From: Bernardetia sp. MNP-M8
GTDB lineage: Bacteria > Bacteroidota > Bacteroidia > Cytophagales > Bernardetiaceae
DNA: 64,000 bases
Direction of reading: 5' to 3'
Assembly (NCBI RefSeq): GCF_037126285.1
Contig: NZ_CP147012.1
Span: 3,116,676 to 3,180,675, forward strand
Of this stretch, positions 8,432 to 63,548 are shown in pieces. The notes beneath the pieces were generated by a model. It was not told where the DNA came from. It searched no databases and worked only from the letters and a program-made list of their open reading frames with translations. A program made the translations under genes and the position numbers. Position 1 is the stretch's first letter. The number at the start of each line of letters is the position of its first letter.

Positions 8432-8759
8432 AATTGATAAGATAAATTAGATAGTTGTTTGTGTGCTTTTATTGGAGTGGTGTTTTAAATATAGTACAAG
8501 ATAATCAATTCTTGACAAATTTTATTTGTTGGAATGATTGATAGAATACTATAAAGTTTTGATAGAATATTAAAAGACAGTTGATTATTTATGTTTTAAA
8601 TTTGTAAAAGAAAATAAGACTTTTTAAGGAACAATTACGAATTAAAAATTACAAATTACGAATTTAGTATATTCAATATCAATAAATTATTATTTCAAAA
8701 TAAGTAATTTAGTTCTATTCCTAAATAAATTTTTACACACAAATAATCATTTTTTAATT

Positions 8760-10280
8760 ATGGAAACTACCACAAAAGCAACTGATAAATTAGCTTTTCC
8801 AAAGTTTAAGGAACGCTATGATAATTTTATAAATGGAGAATGGACTTCTCCTGTTAAAGGACAGTATTTTGATAATATTTCGCCAGTAAGTGGAGAAGTT
8901 ATCACAAAAATAGCTCGTTCAACAAAAGAAGATGTAGATTTGGCTCTTGATGCAGCTCACGAAGCATTCAAAACTTGGTCTAAAACATCGGCTACTGAAA
9001 GAAGTAATATTATGCTCAAAATAGCTGATATTATGGAGAAAAATTTAGAGTATTTAGCAATTATTGAAACGGTAGATAACGGCAAAGCTGTCAGAGAAAC
9101 AAAAGCTGCTGATTTACCACTTTGTATTGACCATTTTCGTTATTTCGCTGGTGTGATTCGTGCCGAAGAGGGAAGTGTTGCAGAACTAGACCAAAACACA
9201 GTTTCAATGAATATTGATGAGCCATTAGGTGTGGTGGGTCAGATTATTCCTTGGAATTTCCCTCTTTTAATGGCGACTTGGAAACTTGCGCCTGCTTTGG
9301 CTGCTGGTTGTTGTGTCGTAATGAAACCTGCCGAACAAACACCTGTCGGAATTTTGATTTTTATGGAACTTATCAAAGATGTCTTGCCTAAAGGTGTCGT
9401 TAATATTGTTTCTGGTTTTGGTGTAGAAGCAGGAAAACCATTGGCAAGTTCCCCACGAGTAGCAAAAGTTTCTTTCACAGGAGAAACAACAACAGGACGT
9501 TTAATTATGCAATATGCGTCTGAAAATATTATTCCTGTAACTATGGAATTAGGTGGAAAATCGCCAAATGTATTTTTCCCAAGTGTAATGGATGCCGACG
9601 ACGAATTTTTTGATAAGTGTTTGGAAGGTGCTGTTATGTTTGCCTTAAATCAAGGTGAAATTTGTACGTGTCCTTCAAGATTGCTTGTACACGAAGATAT
9701 TTATGATAAATTTATAGAAAGAGTCATTGAAAGAACCGAAAAAATCAAAATGGGACATCCATTAGATGATTCGACGATGATGGGCGCACAGGCTTCAAAA
9801 GATCAGTACGAAAAAATATTATCGTACTTAGAAATTGGAAAAGAAGAGGGCGCAGAAGTCTTGACAGGTGGTGCAGCCAAATATGTCGACGGACTAAAAG
9901 ACGGATATTATATTCAACCAACTATATTAAAAGGACACAATAAAATGAGAGTTTTCCAAGAAGAAATTTTTGGACCTGTTCTTTGTGTTACAACATTCAA
10001 AAATACCGAAGAAGCCATCGAAATTGCAAATGATACGCTTTATGGACTTGGTGCAGGTGTTTGGACGAGAGATGCTCACGAACTTTATAATGTTCCTCGT
10101 GCGATACAAGCAGGTCGTGTTTGGGTAAATTGTTACCATAATTATCCTGCTCATGCTCCGTTTGGAGGTTACAAAAAATCTGGTTTTGGCAGAGAAAATC
10201 ACAAAATGATGTTAAGTCATTATCGCCAAAACAAAAATATGCTTATTTCTTATGACAAGAAAGCATTAGGTTTCTTTTAA
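8760..10280 (+). CDS. NAD(P)+-dependent aldehyde dehydrogenase
   Basis: ALDH motifs ELGGKSP and EEIFGPV, with the catalytic Cys in GEICTCPSR. 506 aa. Confidence 0.9.
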
Positions 10281-10313
10281 AATTGTAAAGTAAAAAATCA
10301 ACCAGTTATATCA

Positions 10314-10347
10314 AACCCTAAGGGACTATGAAGACCCTTAGGGTTTT
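10314..10347. repeat. REP-like palindromic element AAACCCTAAGGGACTATGAAGACCCTTAGGGTTT (copy 1 of 3)
   Basis: Near-identical copy at 40934..40966 and an inverted variant at 34851..34886. All three sit just downstream of gene ends. Confidence 0.7.
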
Positions 10348-34825: not shown

Positions 34826-34850
34826 ATTTTATCATTACTTTTCACGGTAT

Positions 34851-34886
34851 CGAAACCACGAGGGTCTTCAAAACCCTTAGGGTTTA
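34851..34886. repeat. REP-like palindromic element, inverted/variant copy (copy 2 of 3)
   Basis: CGAAACCACGAGGGTCTTCAAAACCCTTAGGGTTT. Its reverse complement aligns with the 10314 and 40934 copies. Confidence 0.55.
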
Positions 34887-40928: not shown

Positions 40929-40933
40929 TACAA

Positions 40934-40966
40934 AACCCTAAGGGACTATGAAGACCCTTAGGGTTG
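40934..40966. repeat. REP-like palindromic element (copy 3 of 3)
   Basis: AAACCCTAAGGGACTATGAAGACCCTTAGGGTT, identical to the 10314 copy. It sits between convergent gene ends. Confidence 0.7.
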
Positions 40967-42606: not shown

Positions 42607-43371
42607 TTAAAATTCATCATTAAAATCAGTATCAAAGTCAAATATTTTGCGTTTGTATTCATACTGACGACCAAAATAAACGTCTTTTACTCTATTATTT
42701 TGTGATACTTCTTCAGGAGTTCCATTGATAAGTGGGTTTCCTTCAAACATAATATAAACTTTATCACAAATAGATAAAGTTTCGTTGGCGTTGTGGTCTG
42801 TGATAAGCACACCAATATTTCTTTGTTTGAGCTTGGCAACGAGCATTTGTATATTTTCCACAGCAATTGGGTCTACACCAGCAAAAGGCTCATCTAATAA
42901 AATAAAATTTGGATTAGTTGCTACTGCCCTAGCAATTTCAGTACGACGACGCTCCCCACCAGAAAGTAATTTTCCTTGTGTTTTTTGGAAACGCTTCAAA
43001 CGAAATTCCTCAATAAGTTCTTCCATTCTTTCTTTTTGTTCTTGTTTGGTCAAATCTCGCATTTGTAAAGGAGCCATGATATTTTCCTCTACAGTAAGTT
43101 CTCTAAAAACAGAGGCTTCTTGCGCCAAATATCCAATGCCAAGTTGTGAACGGCGAAACATAGGAAGTTTTGTAATATCTCTATCATCAAGATAAATTTT
43201 ACCACTATTAGGCTTTACCAATCCTACAATCATATAAAAAGAAGTTGTTTTTCCAGCACCATTTGGTCCTAAAACACCTACAATTTCGCCTTGATTTACT
43301 TCTATCGAAACGCCATTAACGACAGTTCTGCCTCCGTAGCGTTTGATTAAATTTTCTGCTCTTAAAACCAT
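42607..43371 (-). CDS. lptB: LPS export ABC transporter ATP-binding protein
   Basis: Walker A GPNGAGKTT, signature LSGGERRR, Walker B ILLDEP. Collinear with E. coli LptB, about 250 aa. Confidence 0.85.
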   Translation of the reverse strand: MVLRAENLIKRYGGRTVVNGVSIEVNQGEIVGVLGPNGAGKTTSFYMIVGLVKPNSGKIYLDDRDITKLPMFRRSQLGIGYLAQEASVFRELTVEENIMAPLQMRDLTKQEQKERMEELIEEFRLKRFQKTQGKLLSGGERRRTEIARAVATNPNFILLDEPFAGVDPIAVENIQMLVAKLKQRNIGVLITDHNANETLSICDKVYIMFEGNPLINGTPEEVSQNNRVKDVYFGRQYEYKRKIFDFDTDFNDEF

Positions 43372-43561
43372 TTTTTTACAGTTATCAGTTATCAGTTACC
43401 AGTAATCAGTGAAATTCAATTTTATTTCCTTGAGTAACTTTGTACTTCTGTGTTTATAAAATATTTTTTTAGAATGAATTATGAAATTTGAGTATTGTCA
43501 TTTGTATTTCCCAATCTCTAATTTCCATTCCCTAATTCCTATTATTCAAACTTACGAATTA

Positions 43562-44502: not shown

Positions 44503-44657
44503 TTATTTCTTTTTATTGTTTTATCACAAATTTACCAAATAAAAATCTCAAAACTGTAATACTAGTTTTAAAGTTGCTACTAATAAAGGAAAAATGTAGC
44601 ATACGCTTTAGCGTGTGAAAATGTACTGTACACTTTAGTGTGCGAAAAAGCTAGTCT

Positions 44658-45386
44658 ATGAACGAAGTAATCCGTACCGAAAAAATATCAAGGCGTTATA
44701 AAATGGGAGATGAAATTATTCACGCTCTCAAATCAGTTTCTATTTCTATTAATTTTGGTGAATATGTCGCTTTTATGGGGCCTTCGGGTTCTGGAAAATC
44801 TACATTAATGAATATTGTGGGATGTCTGGATACGCCTACAAGTGGTTCGTATGTTTTGAATAAGCGAGATGTAAGCCGACTTTCAGAAGATGAATTGGCA
44901 GAAATTAGAAATAAAGAAATTGGTTTTGTCTTTCAAACTTTCAACCTTTTGCCTCGTGCTTCTTCGTTGGATAATGTAGCTTTGCCGTTGATTTATGCAG
45001 GATACAACAAAAAAGATAGAGATGCAATGGCAAAAAAAGCATTGGAAGATGTCGGTTTGGGCGACCGTTATCATCACAAACCAAACGAACTTTCGGGTGG
45101 ACAAAGACAGCGTGTGGCTATTGCAAGAGCTTTAATAAACAATCCAAGTATTATTTTAGCCGATGAACCCACTGGAAACTTAGATACAAAAACTTCGTAT
45201 GAAATTATGAATTTGTTTGCCGAATTGCATAAAAAAGGAAATACAATTATTATGGTTACCCACGAAGAAGATATTGCAAATTATGCACATCGTGTCGTTT
45301 TTATGCGTGATGGAAATATTGAGCGAGATGAAATAAATGAAAATCCAACACAAGTAAATTTGATTGATTTAGCTAAGAAGGAGTAG
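44658..45386 (+). CDS. ABC transporter ATP-binding protein (LolD/MacB/FtsE-like)
   Basis: Walker [25 protein letters not shown], Walker [12 protein letters not shown]. Confidence 0.85.
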
Positions 45387-45507
45387 AAATTTTGTATTTT
45401 TGCAGGAAGATTTTAATCAAAACAAAAATCTTTCTCAAAAGATTATAAAAAATATACTATCAACTATAAGTTGTCCGTAATTTTTAATTCGTAATTCCTC
45501 CCAAGCT

Positions 45508-47119: not shown

Positions 47120-48325
47120 TCACTTTTTAAATAAAATCAAAGTAATTTTCTCAGGTTTTCCACTCTCTCCATTTTCTTGTTTGTAGTAATAGTCTTCAAT
47201 GAAATCTTCAAAATCTACGATGAAATAAAATAGAAAATCACGTACTTGATAAAAATCAATATTTCCGTAAGTATGCTTCAAAAGTTCAGTCATTCTGTAG
47301 GAAACCTTTACTTTTTCTAAAAGAGAATTGATTTTTCGTACTCCTTGTGCTGCTTTGCTTGTTGCTTTTTCATCGATTAGAGAAAATGATTGGTTCAAAA
47401 TAAGAGCTTTATTTTTCTCTAATTTCATAAACTGACTTACAAAAGAAGAATAAGCCTTTTCTATAGGAAATTCAAATTCAAAATTGGTTTCAATATCGTT
47501 GCTTTCATATTTTTTTAATGCAGGGCGTTCTTTCTTATTATAGATTTTTCCTATTTCTATTCCGTTTGTTTTTTTATGAATGGTAAGTTCTGGTTTGTCG
47601 TATTTATTATGATAATGGTCAATTACAATTTTCTCCCACCCTTTTGGCTGTGCTAATGGATTGTTTGCTGCTGGATGCCATTGATGAAAAACAGGCGATT
47701 TTTCGGCATTAAGCCATTTCATTTCTAATTTTTCTTTATAATCATAATTCAATAAACGTCTATTCAAATCTTTGTCTTCTATTCCCCAAAGCCTGTAATA
47801 TTCGTCAAAAGCTCCTATTTCTTTTAGTTTATTGGTTGGAATAATTACAATTCCCATCGCAGATTCTTTACTGCTTTTTTCAAACTGACCTAGATTCTCA
47901 ATCTTCAAACTATGATTTTCTAAATATTTATCATATTCAAACCCTTCATTCAAATAAAAACATTGATAATGTAAAAGTGTATTTTGATTGATATTCTGAT
48001 TTACTTCTTCCAAAAAATTAGGAGAATAAATCATATCTACATCAGCAATGATACAATATTCTCCTTGCGCTAAATAAATTCCGTTGTTAATAGAAGCCGA
48101 ACGAGACCAAAACATTCCTCTTACTTCATTAAAAACATAGTTTATTTTATCCAAATCAGTACAAAAACTCTCTAATTCATTAGAAATAACTTTATCACTT
48201 CCATAGTTTATAAAAATTACTTCATAGTCTGTAATTACTTTCTGAGTCTGAAGAGAAAGCAAACAGCGTTTAGCTATTTTTGTGTCTCGGTTGCGATAAG
48301 GAACAATAAAAGAGAATTTTGTCAT
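47120..48325 (-). CDS. family 2 glycosyltransferase with C-terminal extension
   Basis: N-terminal FSFIVPYRNRD and DxD-like context. About 400 aa. Confidence 0.55.
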   Translation of the reverse strand: MTKFSFIVPYRNRDTKIAKRCLLSLQTQKVITDYEVIFINYGSDKVISNELESFCTDLDKINYVFNEVRGMFWSRSASINNGIYLAQGEYCIIADVDMIYSPNFLEEVNQNINQNTLLHYQCFYLNEGFEYDKYLENHSLKIENLGQFEKSSKESAMGIVIIPTNKLKEIGAFDEYYRLWGIEDKDLNRRLLNYDYKEKLEMKWLNAEKSPVFHQWHPAANNPLAQPKGWEKIVIDHYHNKYDKPELTIHKKTNGIEIGKIYNKKERPALKKYESNDIETNFEFEFPIEKAYSSFVSQFMKLEKNKALILNQSFSLIDEKATSKAAQGVRKINSLLEKVKVSYRMTELLKHTYGNIDFYQVRDFLFYFIVDFEDFIEDYYYKQENGESGKPEKITLILFKK

Positions 48326-48608
48326 CTGATAGAATAGATAAATAATTTAATCGAAAGATTTAATAAAAAAGTAAATCAATTAAAACGAAAGTAATAGTTT
48401 TTTGTTCTCTATGCTAGTTATAGATTGAAATTAGTCTAAAACTAAAACAGAATTATCAAAAATACTTATAAAATTTAGTTTTCTGTAAAAGGATGACCTA
48501 ATTTTGCTTATAGAATTACGACCTGCCAAAGCAGTGAAGCTAATTACGAATTTTTCTCATTAAAAAAACTCTCATTTACAATAGTTATCAAAGAAACGCA
48601 GTTTCGAA

Positions 48609-48650
48609 CTGATAACTGATAACTGATAACTGATAACTGATAACTGATAA
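48609..48650 (+). repeat. perfect 7-bp tandem repeat (CTGATAA)x6 abutting the start codon of the TamB-like gene
   Basis: Read directly from the sequence. Degenerate copies of the same heptamer lie at 43381..43408 and 58881..58908, each directly 5' of a start codon. Confidence 0.85.
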
Positions 48651-48659
48651 CTGAAAAAA

Positions 48660-51600
48660 TTGCAAAAGCTAAAAAAAATATATCATAATCTTGCTGTTTA
48701 CCTCCGATGGTTTATGATTCGGGTGGGCAGAACCATACGCTTTTCATTGAAGCTAATGGTAGGTATTTTGCTTTTTTTGCTTTTTCTGACACTTATAGGA
48801 CAATATTCGGGTACACAAACTTGGGCTGCCAAAATTGGAGCTACTTATTTGAGTGAGCGTTTGGGTTTTCCAATTACTATTGAAAGACTATATTTTTCTG
48901 ATATTGATAAAGTTACCCTGATAGGACTTAGAGTAATTGACCATACTGACCGTCTTTTTATAGATTCAGACACGTTGAATGCAGATTTGGGTTGGCGAGC
49001 TATTTTTGGAGGAGAAGTCATTCAGATTGATAATGTAGAGTTGCGTGGGACACAGTTTAATATGACTATGAATCCTGCCACAGAATCTTGGAATATAAAT
49101 GAGCTTGTACGAGCTATTTCTGCACTTTCTTCTACTAGTGATACTACTCAAAAGACAAAGGATATTCCCTTTAAAATTAGTAAAGCTAGTTTGCATAATG
49201 TACAGTTTTCGCTTCACAATCCTACTAGAGATTCATTAGAAACAGGACTTTTTGATTATAATCACTTTACAATTAGTAATATTTATGGAGAGTTAGATTA
49301 TTTTAGACTCTTTAAAGATACTGTCGAACTCAATGTTAGGAAAGGAAGCCTGATTGAGCCTTTTGTTGATTTTCCTGTCAGTAATTTGGATGTGTTTTTT
49401 CGTTATACCAACAATTCATTAGAATTTCTGAATCTTGATGCACAAATTGGAAATAGTCATTTGAAAGATACTCTTATTTTCAGGTATGATAGTACAGCTT
49501 ATCTTTCAGAAAATTTTATAGAAAAAGTAGATATTTATGCAAATCTCAAGAATGCTCAACTAGATTTTGCTGATTTGGCTCGTTTTGCCCCTTCTTTAAA
49601 AAAATATAAAGAAAGAGTAGTGGCTACTGGCTTAGTTCGTGGAACAGTTGATGATTTGCGTTCGAAAGATTTACGGATTGATTTTGCCAATCAAAGTTTT
49701 GTCGATGGAAAGTTTGCTATTCGTGGTTTGCCTGATTATGAAAGTTCCTTTCTTGATTTACGATTTAAAGATGCTCGTCTGACAATTTCTGACATCAAAC
49801 AATATCTATCTCCTTCTGATTATCAAACCATTTTGCCGTTAGGAATGGTAAATTTTTCAGGGGAATTTTTGGGCTTTCCTTCCGATTTTGTAGCGAATGG
49901 AAAATTCAAAACATCCATAGGAAATGCTGTAACTGATATTCACTTAAATACAACAAACAAAACTTATGAAGGAAAATTAAATTTAGTTCGTTTTCAAGCT
50001 GGAAAGATGGCAAAAAGTGATTTTTTAGGACAAATAACAGCAAAAGGACAAATAAATGGAAAAGGCTTTACAAAAGAAGAAGCTGATTTGGAAGTAAAAG
50101 CTGCTGTTGATAGTATTACATTAAAAAACAAGTTTAAATACTATTCCTATAAAAATATTATAGTAGATGGGCGTTTGAAATATCCATCTTTTACGGGAGA
50201 AATGACAATTAATGATGCCAACCTAGTCGCTGATATGCGTGGCAAAATTGACTTACAAGACAGTGTCATTAATGGAAGAATTCGTATCATAAAATCAGAT
50301 TTACAAAATTTAGGTGTGTCAAAAAAAATTGCTAATCTACAGGGAAATGGTAATTTTAATCTAAAAGGTCTTACTCTAAATTCTATTACAGGAACTGCCG
50401 AAATTCGTCAAGCTCAAATTGATTACAATAAAAATAAATTGGCTTTAAGTGTCATTTCATTAAATTCTACACTACAAAATGGTTTTCGTGATATTCATTT
50501 AGAATCTGATTATGTTGATTTGGATATAAAAGGAGAGTTTCAATTACAAGATGCTATCGATGATGCAATAAGCACTTTTGAAGAATATCAATTAGAGTTT
50601 TTAAACGATTCGGCTTCACAGGTGGCTTATTATGATAAAAAGAAAGAAAAAGTAGAGAAAAATCCTGCTGAAAAAATACCTTATAAAATTGATTATTCTA
50701 TTGATGTCAAAAAAATAAATCCTCTTGTACAGCTTTTCGAACCTAAATTTTATATTGCTTCTGACTCAAAATTTGATGGGATATTTGAGCGAGATATAGA
50801 AAAAAATCAAGTTAAATTTACACTAGATTCTTATATAGACTCACTCTCCTATCAAGATTTGGCATTATATAGAACCGATTTGAAAATTAATGCCATCAAA
50901 CCGTTAGATTCGATGGGAGTTGATGTTCAGACCAATATTTCCTCAGAAAGACAGTATTATACAAGCGCTCTTTCTGCTGAAAATCTGCGTATTGATGCAC
51001 AATGGTTTGGAAGAGAAATTTTATTTGATACCTACATAAAGAGACAAGAACATAATGATAATGTTTCATTAAAAGGCTCTTTAAATATTACAGATTCACT
51101 TTATGCGCTCAATCTTATCAATCCAGAATTTTTAGTGTTAGATAAAAAGTGGAAAAGTGATTCTTCTGTTAGAATAGGAATACGTAAAGATGAAATTCGT
51201 TTTGAAAATCAATTTATTTTACAAAGTGATAGCCAGCGAATAGAAATAATGGGTAGAGTCTCAAAAGACCCAAATTCTGTTTTGAATGTAGGTTTGGTAA
51301 ATGTAGATTTAGAACCCTTTGGGATATTTCTTGGACAAGACTTGGCAGGACGAGCAAGTGGAGAAGCATTTGTCAGTGGGGTTTATGATACACTAAAATT
51401 AGAAAATAACCTTAATCTTCAAAATTTAGTAATGGCATCCATTCCGATTGGAAACCTACATACAGAATCAGTTTGGAATAATGAAGAACAAAAATTAAAT
51501 ATTGAGGCTTATTTGGCATATGGACGTAGAGAAGTTGTCGATATTTCGGGATATTATTCACCAAAAGACAAAGAAAATCCATTGAATTTGGATGCAAAAA

Positions 51601-53264
51601 TTATTGGAATGAAACTCAATATTGTAGAACCATTCTTAAATGTGGTAGCTGATGGTTTTAAAGGAGATGTTTATGGAGCTGTCAAGATAAAAGGAAAACC
51701 CAATCAGATAAAATTGATAGGAGAGGCTTTTGTAAGTGGAGGAAGTTTTAGAGTAGATTATCTCAACACAATTTATCATTTTGATGATAAAATTACTTTT
51801 ACAGAAAATCAAATTGGTGTGGATAGGTTGCGTTTGTATGATGATGCTGATAATATTGCGTTTTTGGATGGTGGTATTTTTCATGATGGTTTTAAGGATT
51901 TTGTAATGCAATTGCGTGGAGAAATGAAAAAAATGAAGGTTTTAGATACAAAACCACATCATAACGATCTTTTTTATGGAACTGCCTTTGCAACTGGAGA
52001 TTTTGAGCTTTTTGGTGCTTTAGAGCAGTTAGGAATTACAATTAATGCAAAGAGTGAAGCAGGAACTCGTATTTATATGCCATTATCAAATCCTGAAGAT
52101 GTTGCGACACAATCCTTTATTCGTTTTGTCAATCATACTGACTCTACCAAGTTAGATTCTCTTCAAAGTCGTTTGAAAAAAGAAGATTTGTCTAGCTTAA
52201 AAATGGAATTTAACTTAGATATTACACCTGATGCTTATATAGAGCTTATTTTTGATAAAAAAGTAGGTGATGTAATCCGTGGAAACGGAAAAGGAAGGCT
52301 CAAAATGATTATTGATACAAAAGGTGATTTTAATATGTATGGCGATGTAGAAATTGTAAAAGGAGCATATAATTTTACTTTTATGAATGTCATCAATAAA
52401 GAGTTTAATGTCGATAGAGGAAGTCATATTACTTGGAGTGGTGATCCATTTGCAGCACAAGTAGATTTGACAGCAACTTATCAACAAATGGCTTCTCTTG
52501 CACCTCTTATTACTGTTTCGGATAGTAGTGTCTTGGCCAGTCAGGAGATAAAAAGACGTTATCCTGTTGTAGTAGATTTGTTTTTGAAAGGTGATTTGCT
52601 CACACCTGATATTCGTTTTGATATAAATATAACTCAATATCCTGCTTTGATATTGGCAGGAGGAACACCCATTTCCTTAGAATCTTATGTAGCAGCTTTC
52701 AAAACTCGTATCCAAAACGACGACCAAGAGATGAACAAACAGGTTTTTAGTTTGATTTTGCTACGGCGTTTATCGACACAAAATGCCTTTGAGGGAATCA
52801 ATCGTTCAGCAGGAAGTAGTGTAAGTGAGCTTTTATCGAATCAGCTCAGTAATCTCATTTCTCAAGTAGATGAAAACCTAGAAATAGATTTGAATGTACA
52901 AGGATTAGATGCACAAGCATTAAATACATTACAGCTTCGTTTGTCGTATTCTTTTTTTGAGGGTAGGATACGTGTAACTCGGGAAGGTGCGTTTACAAAT
53001 GTTCAGAATCAAGCTAATTTAGCCAGTATTGCAGGTGATTGGACAGTCGAATATTTGATTTTGCCAGATGGAAAATTGCGTATGAAAGTGTATCATAAAA
53101 ATAATGTAAATACGTTTAATACAGCACTTCAAAACAACTCTACAGCAGGCGCAAGTCTTCTGAAAATCTTTACTTTTGATAATTTTAAAGACCTTTTCAA
53201 AATCAAAAAGAAGAAAAAAGATGTTCCTTTTGTGCAGGATAATGAAATTCGGATTGAGGAATGA
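48660..53264 (+). CDS. TamB-like translocation and assembly module protein (AsmA/DUF490-like)
   Basis: 1534 aa with an N-terminal TM anchor and long beta-rich repeats. The C-terminal segment resembles DUF490. TTG start; an ATG start at 48708 is possible instead. Confidence 0.55.
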   Translation: MQKLKKIYHNLAVYLRWFMIRVGRTIRFSLKLMVGILLFLLFLTLIGQYSGTQTWAAKIGATYLSERLGFPITIERLYFSDIDKVTLIGLRVIDHTDRLFIDSDTLNADLGWRAIFGGEVIQIDNVELRGTQFNMTMNPATESWNINELVRAISALSSTSDTTQKTKDIPFKISKASLHNVQFSLHNPTRDSLETGLFDYNHFTISNIYGELDYFRLFKDTVELNVRKGSLIEPFVDFPVSNLDVFFRYTNNSLEFLNLDAQIGNSHLKDTLIFRYDSTAYLSENFIEKVDIYANLKNAQLDFADLARFAPSLKKYKERVVATGLVRGTVDDLRSKDLRIDFANQSFVDGKFAIRGLPDYESSFLDLRFKDARLTISDIKQYLSPSDYQTILPLGMVNFSGEFLGFPSDFVANGKFKTSIGNAVTDIHLNTTNKTYEGKLNLVRFQAGKMAKSDFLGQITAKGQINGKGFTKEEADLEVKAAVDSITLKNKFKYYSYKNIIVDGRLKYPSFTGEMTINDANLVADMRGKIDLQDSVINGRIRIIKSDLQNLGVSKKIANLQGNGNFNLKGLTLNSITGTAEIRQAQIDYNKNKLALSVISLNSTLQNGFRDIHLESDYVDLDIKGEFQLQDAIDDAISTFEEYQLEFLNDSASQVAYYDKKKEKVEKNPAEKIPYKIDYSIDVKKINPLVQLFEPKFYIASDSKFDGIFERDIEKNQVKFTLDSYIDSLSYQDLALYRTDLKINAIKPLDSMGVDVQTNISSERQYYTSALSAENLRIDAQWFGREILFDTYIKRQEHNDNVSLKGSLNITDSLYALNLINPEFLVLDKKWKSDSSVRIGIRKDEIRFENQFILQSDSQRIEIMGRVSKDPNSVLNVGLVNVDLEPFGIFLGQDLAGRASGEAFVSGVYDTLKLENNLNLQNLVMASIPIGNLHTESVWNNEEQKLNIEAYLAYGRREVVDISGYYSPKDKENPLNLDAKIIGMKLNIVEPFLNVVADGFKGDVYGAVKIKGKPNQIKLIGEAFVSGGSFRVDYLNTIYHFDDKITFTENQIGVDRLRLYDDADNIAFLDGGIFHDGFKDFVMQLRGEMKKMKVLDTKPHHNDLFYGTAFATGDFELFGALEQLGITINAKSEAGTRIYMPLSNPEDVATQSFIRFVNHTDSTKLDSLQSRLKKEDLSSLKMEFNLDITPDAYIELIFDKKVGDVIRGNGKGRLKMIIDTKGDFNMYGDVEIVKGAYNFTFMNVINKEFNVDRGSHITWSGDPFAAQVDLTATYQQMASLAPLITVSDSSVLASQEIKRRYPVVVDLFLKGDLLTPDIRFDINITQYPALILAGGTPISLESYVAAFKTRIQNDDQEMNKQVFSLILLRRLSTQNAFEGINRSAGSSVSELLSNQLSNLISQVDENLEIDLNVQGLDAQALNTLQLRLSYSFFEGRIRVTREGAFTNVQNQANLASIAGDWTVEYLILPDGKLRMKVYHKNNVNTFNTALQNNSTAGASLLKIFTFDNFKDLFKIKKKKKDVPFVQDNEIRIEE

Positions 53265-53278
53265 TTTTTTAATAAAAA

Positions 53279-53779
53279 ATGAAAATATATAAACTACTAT
53301 TTTTTTTAGTCTTGAACATATTTGCTGCTTCTTTTAGCTTAGTATCTGCACAAGGAGGCTGGGATATTGGGTATTTCCCCATACAACATTTGGATTCTAT
53401 GTATGAAGCCTTTAAGGGCAAGGAAATCAAATTAGATTTTAGAGAGGATTTAGGAGATACAGTAAAAATAACAGGTACTCTTATAGATAATATGCTACCT
53501 CTTTCTCGTAAGGATACTGTTGCAATAAGAATATTTGATAGTTTAGATGTATTTGTTGAACACTGGGAAACTTATGTTGATCAAGGTTATTTTAAAAAGC
53601 AATATCTTAAAGGAATAAATGAAAATTCATTTATAGAAATAAGAAATATTATTTTGAAAGCAATAGATGAGAATTATCTGTATCTTACTGTAGAAATAAC
53701 TGGAGTAGGATTTCAGCCCAATAAAGATATTATACTAGACAGAAAGTTAGTCAAAGGAATATTATATGAAATAGAATAA
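53279..53779 (+). CDS. secreted hypothetical protein
   Basis: Signal peptide. 166 aa. Downstream of the tamB-like gene. Confidence 0.35.
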   Translation: MKIYKLLFFLVLNIFAASFSLVSAQGGWDIGYFPIQHLDSMYEAFKGKEIKLDFREDLGDTVKITGTLIDNMLPLSRKDTVAIRIFDSLDVFVEHWETYVDQGYFKKQYLKGINENSFIEIRNIILKAIDENYLYLTVEITGVGFQPNKDIILDRKLVKGILYEIE

Positions 53780-53820
53780 ACCAAACGATTCACTTTGAGT
53801 AAACCGTTTGGTATATAAAC

Positions 53821-57479: not shown

Positions 57480-58877
57480 TTACCCTCCTGCATACACCCA
57501 TTCCATCAACCAAGCTGCTGCAATTGCTCCATACGTTCCGAGTGCATAACCCAAAACAGCCAATAAAACACCTACAGGTGCAAGTGCCGTACTAAAAGCC
57601 GAAGCTACCACAGGCGCAGAAGCAGCACCACCAATATTAGCCTGACTTCCTACAGCTACAAAAAAGAAAGGTGCTTTTATCAGGTAAGCCACAAAAAGCA
57701 AAATACTAACGTGAACAAGCATCCAAATAATGCCTAAGAAAAATAGACCTAAATATTGACCTATTTCAGCTAAATTCATGTGCATTCCGATTGTTGCGAC
57801 AAGAATATAAATACAAACACTTCCTATTTTTGATGCGCCTGCCCCTTCTAATTTACGAAGAGGAGTAAAAGAAAGCAAAACACCGATTGTAGTGGCAAAA
57901 ACTACCAGCCAAAAGAATCCACTTGTAAGGGAGTTAAGTCCAATATCATTTAATTGCTTTTCATATCCTTCCATGATTGGTGTAATAAGATCAGCAAAAA
58001 AATGCGCTCCTGCCGTTGCACCAAAACCAATTGCCAAAATAACAAATAAATCAGTTGTAGATGGAATACGGGCATGTTTGGCTTGAAAATCTTCCATTTT
58101 CTTCTTTAAAGCTGTGATAGAAGAAGTATCAGCTTTTAAAATTCTGTCTATTTTATCGCTCATATTTGCACCATATAATAAAAAGCCCATCCAAATATTA
58201 GCTACTATAACATCAATTACTATCATTGCACCAAACAAACTTCCACTTGGTTGATAAATTTCTTTCATGGCTGCTTGATTTGCCCCTCCACCAATCCAAC
58301 TTCCTGCAATGGTTGATAAACCTCTCCAAACAGCATTATTTCCTGTTCCTTCTACTGTTTCAGGACTTACTGCATGAACAATAAAAAGAGCAACAGCACC
58401 ACCGATAACAATTCCGACTGTTGCAGTCAAAAACATAACAATGGCACGCCAACCCAAATTCAAAACTCCTTTCAAATCAATGCTCAAACAAAGCAAAACC
58501 AATGCAACAGGTAATAAATAACGAGAAGCAACAAAATAAAGATGAGATTCTTTTATAAACCCTTTGTACTGACTTTTTTCGATTCCATTATCTGAAAAAA
58601 TCTGTTTTACTTCATTAAAATTAGCACCCTCTGGAATAGAAATATTGAGTGAGCTTGCAAATTCCAAAATATCTGAATCAAACCATTCTGCTGCAATAAG
58701 ATGCAATGGATAATTTAATAAAGCAGGAATAAAATAACACAAAAGCAAAGCAGGAACATATGTATAAAATTTTTGCCAACCTTTATTTTTACTATTTGAA
58801 GTAACAAAAATAATAGCCAAAACAATAAGTAAAATACCTAAAACAATAGCATCGTTTGTAAAAAGAGGAGAATTCAT
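57480..58877 (-). CDS. DUF819-family polytopic membrane protein (putative transporter)
   Basis: About 12 TM helices. The N-terminus resembles the YjcL/DUF819 family. Confidence 0.45.
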   Translation of the reverse strand: MNSPLFTNDAIVLGILLIVLAIIFVTSNSKNKGWQKFYTYVPALLLCYFIPALLNYPLHLIAAEWFDSDILEFASSLNISIPEGANFNEVKQIFSDNGIEKSQYKGFIKESHLYFVASRYLLPVALVLLCLSIDLKGVLNLGWRAIVMFLTATVGIVIGGAVALFIVHAVSPETVEGTGNNAVWRGLSTIAGSWIGGGANQAAMKEIYQPSGSLFGAMIVIDVIVANIWMGFLLYGANMSDKIDRILKADTSSITALKKKMEDFQAKHARIPSTTDLFVILAIGFGATAGAHFFADLITPIMEGYEKQLNDIGLNSLTSGFFWLVVFATTIGVLLSFTPLRKLEGAGASKIGSVCIYILVATIGMHMNLAEIGQYLGLFFLGIIWMLVHVSILLFVAYLIKAPFFFVAVGSQANIGGAASAPVVASAFSTALAPVGVLLAVLGYALGTYGAIAAAWLMEWVYAGG

Positions 58878-59142
58878 GTCAGTTATCAGTAAACAGTTAT
58901 AAGTTACCTGTTGAATTACAAATATGTAATTACTAAAAAAGGAATTTCAAAACTGAATGGATTAGGATTAAAATTAATAAAAATACTAAGGGGATTTCAA
59001 AACAATCTACAATATAGAATCTGTTTTTTGTGTTTACAACTGTTTGTTAAAATTTTATGTAAAAAATACTTAAACAAGTCGTATCAATAAACGTTGTTCT
59101 GTTTATAATCTCATTTTTTATTAGAATATAAAACAAAAAAAT

Positions 59143-63440: not shown

Positions 63441-63548
63441 TTATGAACTGAAAGTCAGCGTAGCTAATTACGAATTAAAAATTACGATTGTAATAATGCT
63501 CTTGACTTTAAATAGTTAAGTGTAATTATCGTAATCCGTAATTATTTC

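Follow-up and report, generated by a model that had tools for sequence, protein, structure and literature searches.

The window analyzed here, that is, the whole 64-kb stretch of DNA (G+C content, 30.8%), carries a gene for a TamB-like protein whose start codon is preceded by a perfect tandem array of a heptamer, and two further genes, lptB and a gene for a DUF819 membrane protein, whose start codons are preceded by degenerate arrays of the same unit. The features concerned and their coordinates are summarized in Table 1. The TamB-like product, named as such in an earlier note on this DNA and confirmed by its Pfam match, has its closest relatives among Flexibacter/Bernardetia proteins (88-92% amino-acid identity). 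Its TTG start and first 18 codons are kept in six Bernardetia-clade loci, with changes that are mostly synonymous; upstream of the TTG, similarity among the six loci ends exactly at that codon, and an in-frame TAA (48648-48650) lies within the array, 12 nt 5' of it. We consider the predicted TTG start of tamB to be well supported.

Table 1. Coordinates of heptamer arrays, adjoining genes, and leader features in the window
Feature	Position	Strand	Basis or remarks
lptB CDS	42607-43371	-	ABC_tran family; sources name LPS export ATP-binding protein
Degenerate array before lptB	43378..43409	-	CTGATTA CTGGTAA CTGATAA CTGATAA CTGT, then A6 + ATG
Candidate Bacteroidetes-type -7 promoter motif TAATTTTG (TAnnTTTG)	48499..48506	+	Alignment of four syntenic loci
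Inverse complement of one unit, AGTTATCA	48583..48590	+	16 nt upstream of the array
Perfect heptamer array before tamB	48607..48654	+	Tandem Repeats Finder (period 7, 6.9 copies, 100% matches, score 96); direct reading
A5 spacer, array to start codon	48655..48659	+	
tamB-like CDS, 1534 aa, TTG start	48660..53264	+	Pfam PF04357 TamB, E = 1.3e-43
DUF819 membrane-protein CDS	57480-58877	-	
Degenerate array before DUF819 gene	58879..58906	-	TAACTTA TAACTGT TTACTGA TAACTGA, then C + ATG

The score of the tamB array was the highest among the tandem repeats detected in the window. The array can be written as (CTGATAA)6+CTGA or, in the other phase, as (TAACTGA)6, and its junction with the gene reads cgaa(CTGATAA)6 CTGA AAAAA TTG (window positions 48600-48662, cgaaCTGATAACTGATAACTGATAACTGATAACTGATAACTGATAACTGAaaaaaTTG). 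The perfect (CTGATAA)6 repeat that had previously been described at 48609-48650, ending 9 nt before the TTG, was recovered by the repeat finder inside this longer tract, and the distance from 48650 to the TTG at 48660 agrees. On the tamB strand the unit reads TAACTGA, with 5 nt between the last unit and the TTG; a near-unit, GAACTGA (48606-48612), heads six perfect TAACTGA units (48613-48654), giving an overall extent of 48606-48654. The array occupies the 334-nt intergenic gap between tamB (+) and a divergent glycosyltransferase gene (47120-48325, -). Matches to the 14-mer CTGATAACTGATAA with at most 2 mismatches numbered 12 in the window against 1.01 expected, a count reached in 0 of 100 dinucleotide-preserving shuffles, and were confined to three places, namely the tamB array, 43375-43409 (-), and 58876-58896 (-). 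When an array was defined as three or more in-phase units, each with no more than 1 mismatch, 100 shuffles of the window contained none.

The A5 spacer places an A at -3, and the last A of the final unit is the A at -6; the A6 spacer of lptB likewise provides an A at both positions. An A-rich stretch from -1 to -6 is common to most genes of the window. No GGAG-type purine-rich motif occurs between the tamB array and the TTG, and the window genes lack Shine-Dalgarno (SD) sequences, as expected in Bacteroidota. By direct reading, ATG, GTG, and TTG are all absent from the array, and stop codons occur in every frame; because each unit holds both TAA and TGA, a tandem array shuts all three frames. 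The array RNA alone has a minimum free energy of 0 kcal/mol, and among the 54 genes of the window, tamB has the initiation region (-50 to +20) with the least structure. An Rfam scan of 48300-48720 at a permissive E-value returned two chance-level matches (a snoRNA and RybB; E = 0.26-0.52), both far below gathering scores, and thus no known RNA family in this interval.

A single block of the tamB intergenic region, AAAAYTTAGYTTTYT...TAnnTTTG, is conserved in an alignment of four syntenic loci, and no other part of the region is. TAnnTTTG is the -7 promoter motif of Bacteroidetes, and we infer that TAATTTTG is the tamB promoter motif, which would give a leader of approximately 150 nt that includes the array. 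A scan for sigma-70-type promoters gave 5 weak matches against 2.0 expected; as this model is inapplicable to the primary promoters of Bacteroidetes, we relied on the conserved TAnnTTTG block. Given the 5 nt that separate the array from the TTG and the promoter-like block approximately 150 nt upstream, the array is predicted to lie in the 5' leader of tamB and to be transcribed as (UAACUGA)n. Unless the tamB mRNA is leaderless, it must carry the array, because of the same 5-nt distance and because the array holds no promoter motif. The earlier note had proposed that a change in copy number would alter the spacing between promoter and start. The tract does lie between the likely promoter and the start, but since this 48-nt non-coding tract, 5 nt from the start, is not a promoter spacer, leader length alone would change.

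The inverse complement of one unit found upstream of the array (AGTTATCA) could pair with any array unit. A hairpin of the upstream AGUUAUCA with the array was rejected, as its fold was no better than those of shuffles (z = -1.16).

Sister arrays and variation among Bernardetia strains and species

The LptB protein encoded in the window is 100% identical to a protein of Bernardetia sp. Wsw4-3y2. The junction at lptB had been likened to that at tamB; an array, A6, and ATG are indeed present there, but the likeness is partly that of the A-rich stretch found at most genes. The DUF819 array is a third set in the window, absent from the earlier note. Array orientation tracks gene direction at all three loci, with the tamB array on the forward strand and the lptB and DUF819 arrays on the reverse strand within 15 kb. 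A replication-oriented polar DNA motif was ruled out, given that arrays on both strands within these 15 kb follow gene direction, and a mobile-element footprint or target-site duplication was ruled out on the basis of 6-12 perfect tandem copies, clean 7-nt indels, and no element nearby. Ranked by poorness in structure, the lptB and DUF819 initiation regions stand 31st and 21st of 54; because both are mid-ranked, an unstructured leader is a property of the perfect tamB array only and not a general one.

Strain L246 (GCA_020630575.1) shares 96.9% nucleotide identity with the window over 18.8 kb and is conspecific. Its tamB array is (CTGATAA)7+CTGA versus (CTGATAA)6+CTGA in the window, a clean 7-nt indel with identical flanks, and its lptB array is the same as in the window strain. 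The comparison of copy number across strains that the earlier note had called for therefore returned 6 versus 7 units in two conspecific strains, and its description of the tract as slippage-prone is borne out by this one-unit difference and by a 7-nt difference at lptB between species. Slipped-strand mispairing is supported as the likely route by which array copy number changes. No further strains were found beyond the two conspecifics, neither the exact TamB protein nor two of its orthologues were on record, and when metagenomes were scanned with the conserved pattern of the tamB 5' coding region, a single contig was recovered, identical to L122.

Five further Bernardetia-clade tamB loci (L122-L126) have no TAACTGA array before the start. 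In L122, TTCCCTAA-type repeats adjoin the TTG; in L123, a perfect palindrome is found, and in L124-L126, unrelated sequence. Because it is absent from these five loci, the array is dispensable for tamB expression. The lptB array was found in all five Bernardetia lineages examined, with 3-5 units and lineage-specific substitutions. That of Bernardetia sp. ABR2-2B has one unit less than the window, and that of B. litoralis DSM 6794 reads CTGATAA CTGGTAA CTGATAA CTGGTAA CTGATTT ATG and was missed by the published criterion because no two perfect units are adjacent. DUF819 arrays comprise 4-5 units in three species (including those of L123 and L124), and their point changes keep the heptamer register. 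By the same definition of an array (three or more in-phase units, each with no more than 1 mismatch), 230 kb of Bernardetia DNA contained 9, all of which were forward and adjoined tamB, lptB, or DUF819 starts; no array lay away from these starts and none was reversed. From this comparative anatomy we infer that arrays arise anew (tamB), drift by whole units, and outlast speciation (lptB and DUF819).

The segment of the window downstream of tamB (53265-53820) contains an ORF of 166 aa that gave no Pfam match. At the same 3' flank, L246 (1-164) and ABR2-2B (L123 14606-18799) carry a gene for a NACHT/STAND-type NTPase (1368-1397 aa), and the tamB downstream flank is a variable region.

A perfect tract of 6.9 copies, a one-unit difference between conspecific strains with the same flanks, and a 7-nt lptB indel between species are also compatible with a phase-variable contingency locus, in which high-frequency slippage would switch or strongly modulate tamB; we judge this reading to be quite improbable. 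Repeats of 7 bp lie upstream of the hmw genes of Haemophilus influenzae. In Moraxella catarrhalis, the AGAT repeats of uspA2 and the poly-G tract of uspA1 are 5'-UTR phase-variation repeats, those of uspA2 being known to tune the gene (as summarized in PMC4679880). The tamB tract resembles the uspA2 and hmw repeats in lying between promoter and start, in its strain-variable copy number, and in its possible quantitative effect. The latter repeats, however, are locus-specific, belong to adhesin or surface genes of host-adapted pathogens, and have a demonstrated effect on expression, whereas the unit described here is common to many unrelated genes and phyla and keeps a fixed orientation and position. 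Bernardetia is, moreover, a free-living marine bacterium, the tract lies outside both the coding frame and the promoter spacer, and the repeat is not confined to genes for the cell surface or host interaction. Degeneracy leaves the lptB and DUF819 arrays poorly mutable, yet they are kept across species, and the lptB array is identical in both conspecific strains. Slippage alone also leaves unexplained the rule of orientation and start proximity across phyla and the presence of the repeat at housekeeping genes. Contingency control of an outer-membrane biogenesis gene, as put forward in the earlier note, is not upheld, for the unit also precedes lptB, DUF819, and housekeeping genes in several phyla.

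The TAACTGA direct-repeat class in other genomes

MacGregor (2015, Front Microbiol 6:1397, PMC4679880) described "TAACTGA direct repeats" in Beggiatoaceae, Cyanobacteria, and five Bacteroidetes. The genome of an orange Guaymas 'Maribeggiatoa' contains 169 TAACTGA sets, mostly intergenic and forward, the largest class of which ends 1 nt before a start codon, and a ribosome-binding site is usually absent (PMC4679880). Of the 22 intergenic sets mapped in Microcystis, only 6 lie forward of a start (PMC4679880). For Flexibacter (now Bernardetia) litoralis DSM 6794, the paper lists 14 sets; 12 of these are forward, at distances of 1-43 nt from the start codon, and show junctions like TAACTGAAAAATG, before dapB, trpC, accC, recR, rplB, and other genes; a reversed 7-copy array is found right after the rnhB stop codon (PMC4679880, Supplementary Table 5 for the junctions).

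The tamB tract almost certainly belongs to this class. CTGATAA is a rotation of TAACTGA, and the tract comprises six perfect units and GAACTGA where the class is defined by at least two tandem direct copies. It is intergenic and forward, lying in the 334-nt gap on the tamB strand, and is 5 nt from the start codon, as compared with 1-43 nt in F. litoralis, with no canonical SD sequence between repeat and start. Three sets, including 'split' or degenerate ones with related heptamers, precede unrelated genes in 64 kb, and the host falls within the reported taxon range, being a Bernardetia as judged by the TamB and LptB identities given above. The tamB, lptB, and DUF819 loci do differ from the published B. 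litoralis list in not being included in it. New relative to 2015 are the one-unit polymorphism within a species, the degenerate arrays kept genus-wide, a wider phylogenetic range, and reversed arrays on phage-like contigs.

A scan of a genome collection (GTDB) for (CTGATAA)3 yielded at least 120 loci. The matches listed were mostly from Cyanobacteria (Okeania, Microcystis, Scytonema, Calothrix, and others) and Beggiatoaceae, with some from Bacteroidota. Phyla beyond those of 2015 were, among the matches listed, Acidobacteriota, Planctomycetota, Verrucomicrobiota/Victivallaceae, Poribacteria, Nitrospirota, and Desulfobacterota, and large array-bearing records included a complete Pyrinomonadaceae chromosome and megabase-scale contigs of Poribacteria and Desulfobacula. 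The position of the arrays was re-tested on 110 listed arrays with at least 350 nt on both sides, taking ORFs of at least 80 aa and starts at no more than 30 nt. A start lay within this distance of the forward (TAACTGA-strand) end in 37 of the 110 listed arrays versus 3 of 110 for the reverse end (Fisher p = 8e-10). By taxonomic group, again among listed matches, start-proximal arrays accounted for 30/86 in Cyanobacteria, 6/9 in Beggiatoaceae/Gamma, 4/11 in Bacteroidota, and 6/19 in other phyla, the last being cases from Pyrinomonadaceae, Victivallaceae, and Planctomycetota (Thermoguttaceae and Pirellulaceae).

A slippage-expanded heptamer could be a functionless satellite that survives where it is harmless: forward arrays are barred from genes by their all-frame stops and would do no harm just upstream of a start, copy number drifts, and the downstream genes have no functional theme (PMC4679880). 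The tamB array is, in addition, lineage-specific and missing in five relatives, where other repeats fill the same slot (TTCCCTAA-type repeats in L122, a palindrome in L123). We nevertheless find this explanation rather unlikely, since tolerance leaves unexplained the rarity of reverse-facing arrays (3/110 versus 37/110 listed arrays), their lower frequency after stop codons, and the retention of degenerate arrays in five lineages (lptB) and three lineages (DUF819). The recurrence of one heptamer in distant phyla is likewise left without explanation.

Tandem heptamers can serve as protein sites, and TGATAAC presumably resembles the AT-rich half-sites of some repressors, so that the array could act as a DNA-level operator, its heptamers binding a double-strand DNA regulator or a nucleoid protein that represses or activates transcription. 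In Nostoc recF/recO constructs, deletion of heptamers other than TAACTGA altered recO/recF reporter output, the mechanism being undecided (bioRxiv 10.1101/2022.06.06.494920). The TAACTGA arrays, however, are anchored to the start codon, typically at 0-5 nt, and not to promoters; their strong bias toward the strand of the gene (37 versus 3 among listed arrays) points to the transcript; and the array has no dyad symmetry and no candidate regulator is known. An operator is for these reasons a decidedly unlikely account, and start-codon anchoring together with strand bias argues for a role or constraint at the RNA level over recognition of duplex DNA.

Inverted 8-mers, or whole inverted arrays, were found no more than 80 nt upstream in 9 of 130 listed arrays of other genomes (L025, L029, L067, L083, L087, L091, L109, L115, and L119) and downstream in 0 of 130 listed arrays, with 1.6% in control windows. 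A subset of TAACTGA arrays may thus form hairpins with upstream inverse copies.

On phage-like contigs, arrays were mostly reversed relative to the nearest start. In IMG/VR, 118 putative viral contig stretches (L128-L245), many of them related, carry (CTGATAA)3. In one of these (L134; 10702-10727 and 11400-11426), the arrays are reversed, reading UCAGUUA in the mRNA sense, and a gap of approximately 25 nt separates them from downstream small ORFs whose starts are preceded by AGGAG or AAAGG; genes with tail-fibre-like PHROG matches lie nearby. Viral arrays are a possible vehicle of horizontal spread, or could stand in an antisense relation to host leaders. An antisense scheme, in which (UAACUGA)n leaders would pair with trans-encoded (UCAGUUA)n RNAs that co-regulate the array genes, could draw on the reversed 7-copy array after the rnhB stop in B. 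litoralis, the reversed arrays 5' of small genes on phage-like contigs, and the inverted units that precede some arrays. The idea is purely speculative and no reversed array occurs in the window or in 230 kb of Bernardetia DNA; we hold it to be very improbable.

In Okeania and other cyanobacteria (L009, L035, L040, L065, L066, L071, L076, L081, L105, L110, and others), arrays have the common flanks gaggtACTGATAA...CTGAaATGAC, followed by short ORFs, which suggests a multi-copy small-gene or mobile family with its own array.

A possible role at translation initiation

The best explanation overall, and in our view a fairly probable one, is that the tamB tract is a TAACTGA-class 5'-leader element that probably acts on translation initiation. 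That the array has an RNA-level role in translation we advance more tentatively, as a nearly even matter; it would act, or be tolerated, at the RNA level when the ribosome initiates. A leader that is free of structure and of alternative starts and that has stops in every frame would suit ribosomes that do not use SD pairing, and the 7-nt period corresponds to the stretch covered by one OB fold in single-strand binders of the Csp or S1 type, proteins that may read the array. MacGregor hypothesized that the repeats are the binding site of a post-transcriptional regulator, with S1, Csp-type, or similar single-strand binders as candidates, and pointed out that each heptamer is bound by one CspB protein (PMC4679880). 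The suggestion in the earlier note that the tract could be a protein-binding array agrees with this published hypothesis. Copy-number slippage would tune expression quantitatively at most, with no on/off switching.

SD-less initiation in Bacteroidetes is tuned by adenines upstream of the start, by low structure, and by the avoidance of additional AUGs; in Flavobacterium johnsoniae, an A at -3 and one at -6 each promote initiation (Baez et al. 2019, PMC6847099). The tamB leader agrees with these signals in its A-rich -1 to -6 stretch, low structure, and lack of extra AUGs. It differs in that the published signals are single-nucleotide preferences of all genes (PMC6847099), whereas here a discrete repeated element is present.

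A bolder proposal, which we consider unlikely, is that TAACTGA arrays serve as the cis-acting sites of a post-transcriptional regulon that has spread horizontally across phyla and has a dedicated heptamer reader. A factor would bind (UAACUGA)n at the start codon and control initiation where SD pairing is little used; the reader would be an OB-fold protein (Csp or S1-like) whose domains each cover 7 nt, or else an antisense RNA, (UCAGUUA)n. Phages might exploit such a reader, and the gain of each gene would depend on how many binding units slippage has added or removed.

The tamB locus is one more case of the 2015 class and offers a practical entry point to its biology, Bernardetia being cultivable, unlike the giant sulfur bacteria in which TAACTGA repeats are most abundant. 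The one-unit strain difference, the retention of the lptB and DUF819 arrays, and the forward, start-adjoining rule in at least four groups of phyla constitute natural starting material, which could reveal how initiation is controlled without SD pairing.

Other repeats in the window and its relatives

Tandem intergenic heptamer families, known as short tandemly repeated repetitive (STRR) sequences, are abundant in filamentous cyanobacteria. The TAACTGA arrays are like STRR in being tandem heptamers in intergenic DNA and unlike them in unit sequence. We know of no start-codon anchoring described for STRR heptanucleotide repeats, and a literature search on the latter found nothing citable.

Direct or inverted intergenic copies of a second heptamer, the ATTACGA/AATTACGA family, are found at 8630-8664, 43549-43560, 45474-45497, 48513-48549, 58913-58933, and 63463-63490. 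Two copies of this family, split by 21 nt, lie in the tamB leader of the window, where L246 has four in tandem. In B. litoralis, ATTACGA is also found after stop codons that lie upstream of TAACTGA sets (PMC4679880). Directly 5' of the DUF819 array lies an inverted pair, AATTAC-6nt-GTAATT, which is kept in L123 and L124.

Between the lptB array and a nucleotidyltransferase gene, a block of approximately 75 nt (43469-43542) consists of TTCCCTAA/GGGAAAT-type repeats and is missing from L246 and L123. Similar TTCCCTAA-type repeats are found in L122 (880-925, at the tamB TTG) and, reversed, in L124 (about 9810-9850). As judged from these occurrences, TTCCCTAA/GGGAAAT is another putative mobile or expandable repeat family in leader regions.

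A near-identical palindrome, AAACCCTAAGGG-N10-CCCTTAGGGTT, is located at gene ends at 10311-10345, 34850-34885, and 40933-40965, and also just 5' of tamB in Bernardetia sp. ABR2-2B (L123, about 9950-9985); it looks terminator- or REP-like. Finally, a 27-nt tandem repeat of 2.1 copies (44591-44648), with a dyad, CGCTTTAGCG, in each copy, lies immediately 5' of an ABC ATPase gene that starts at 44658.
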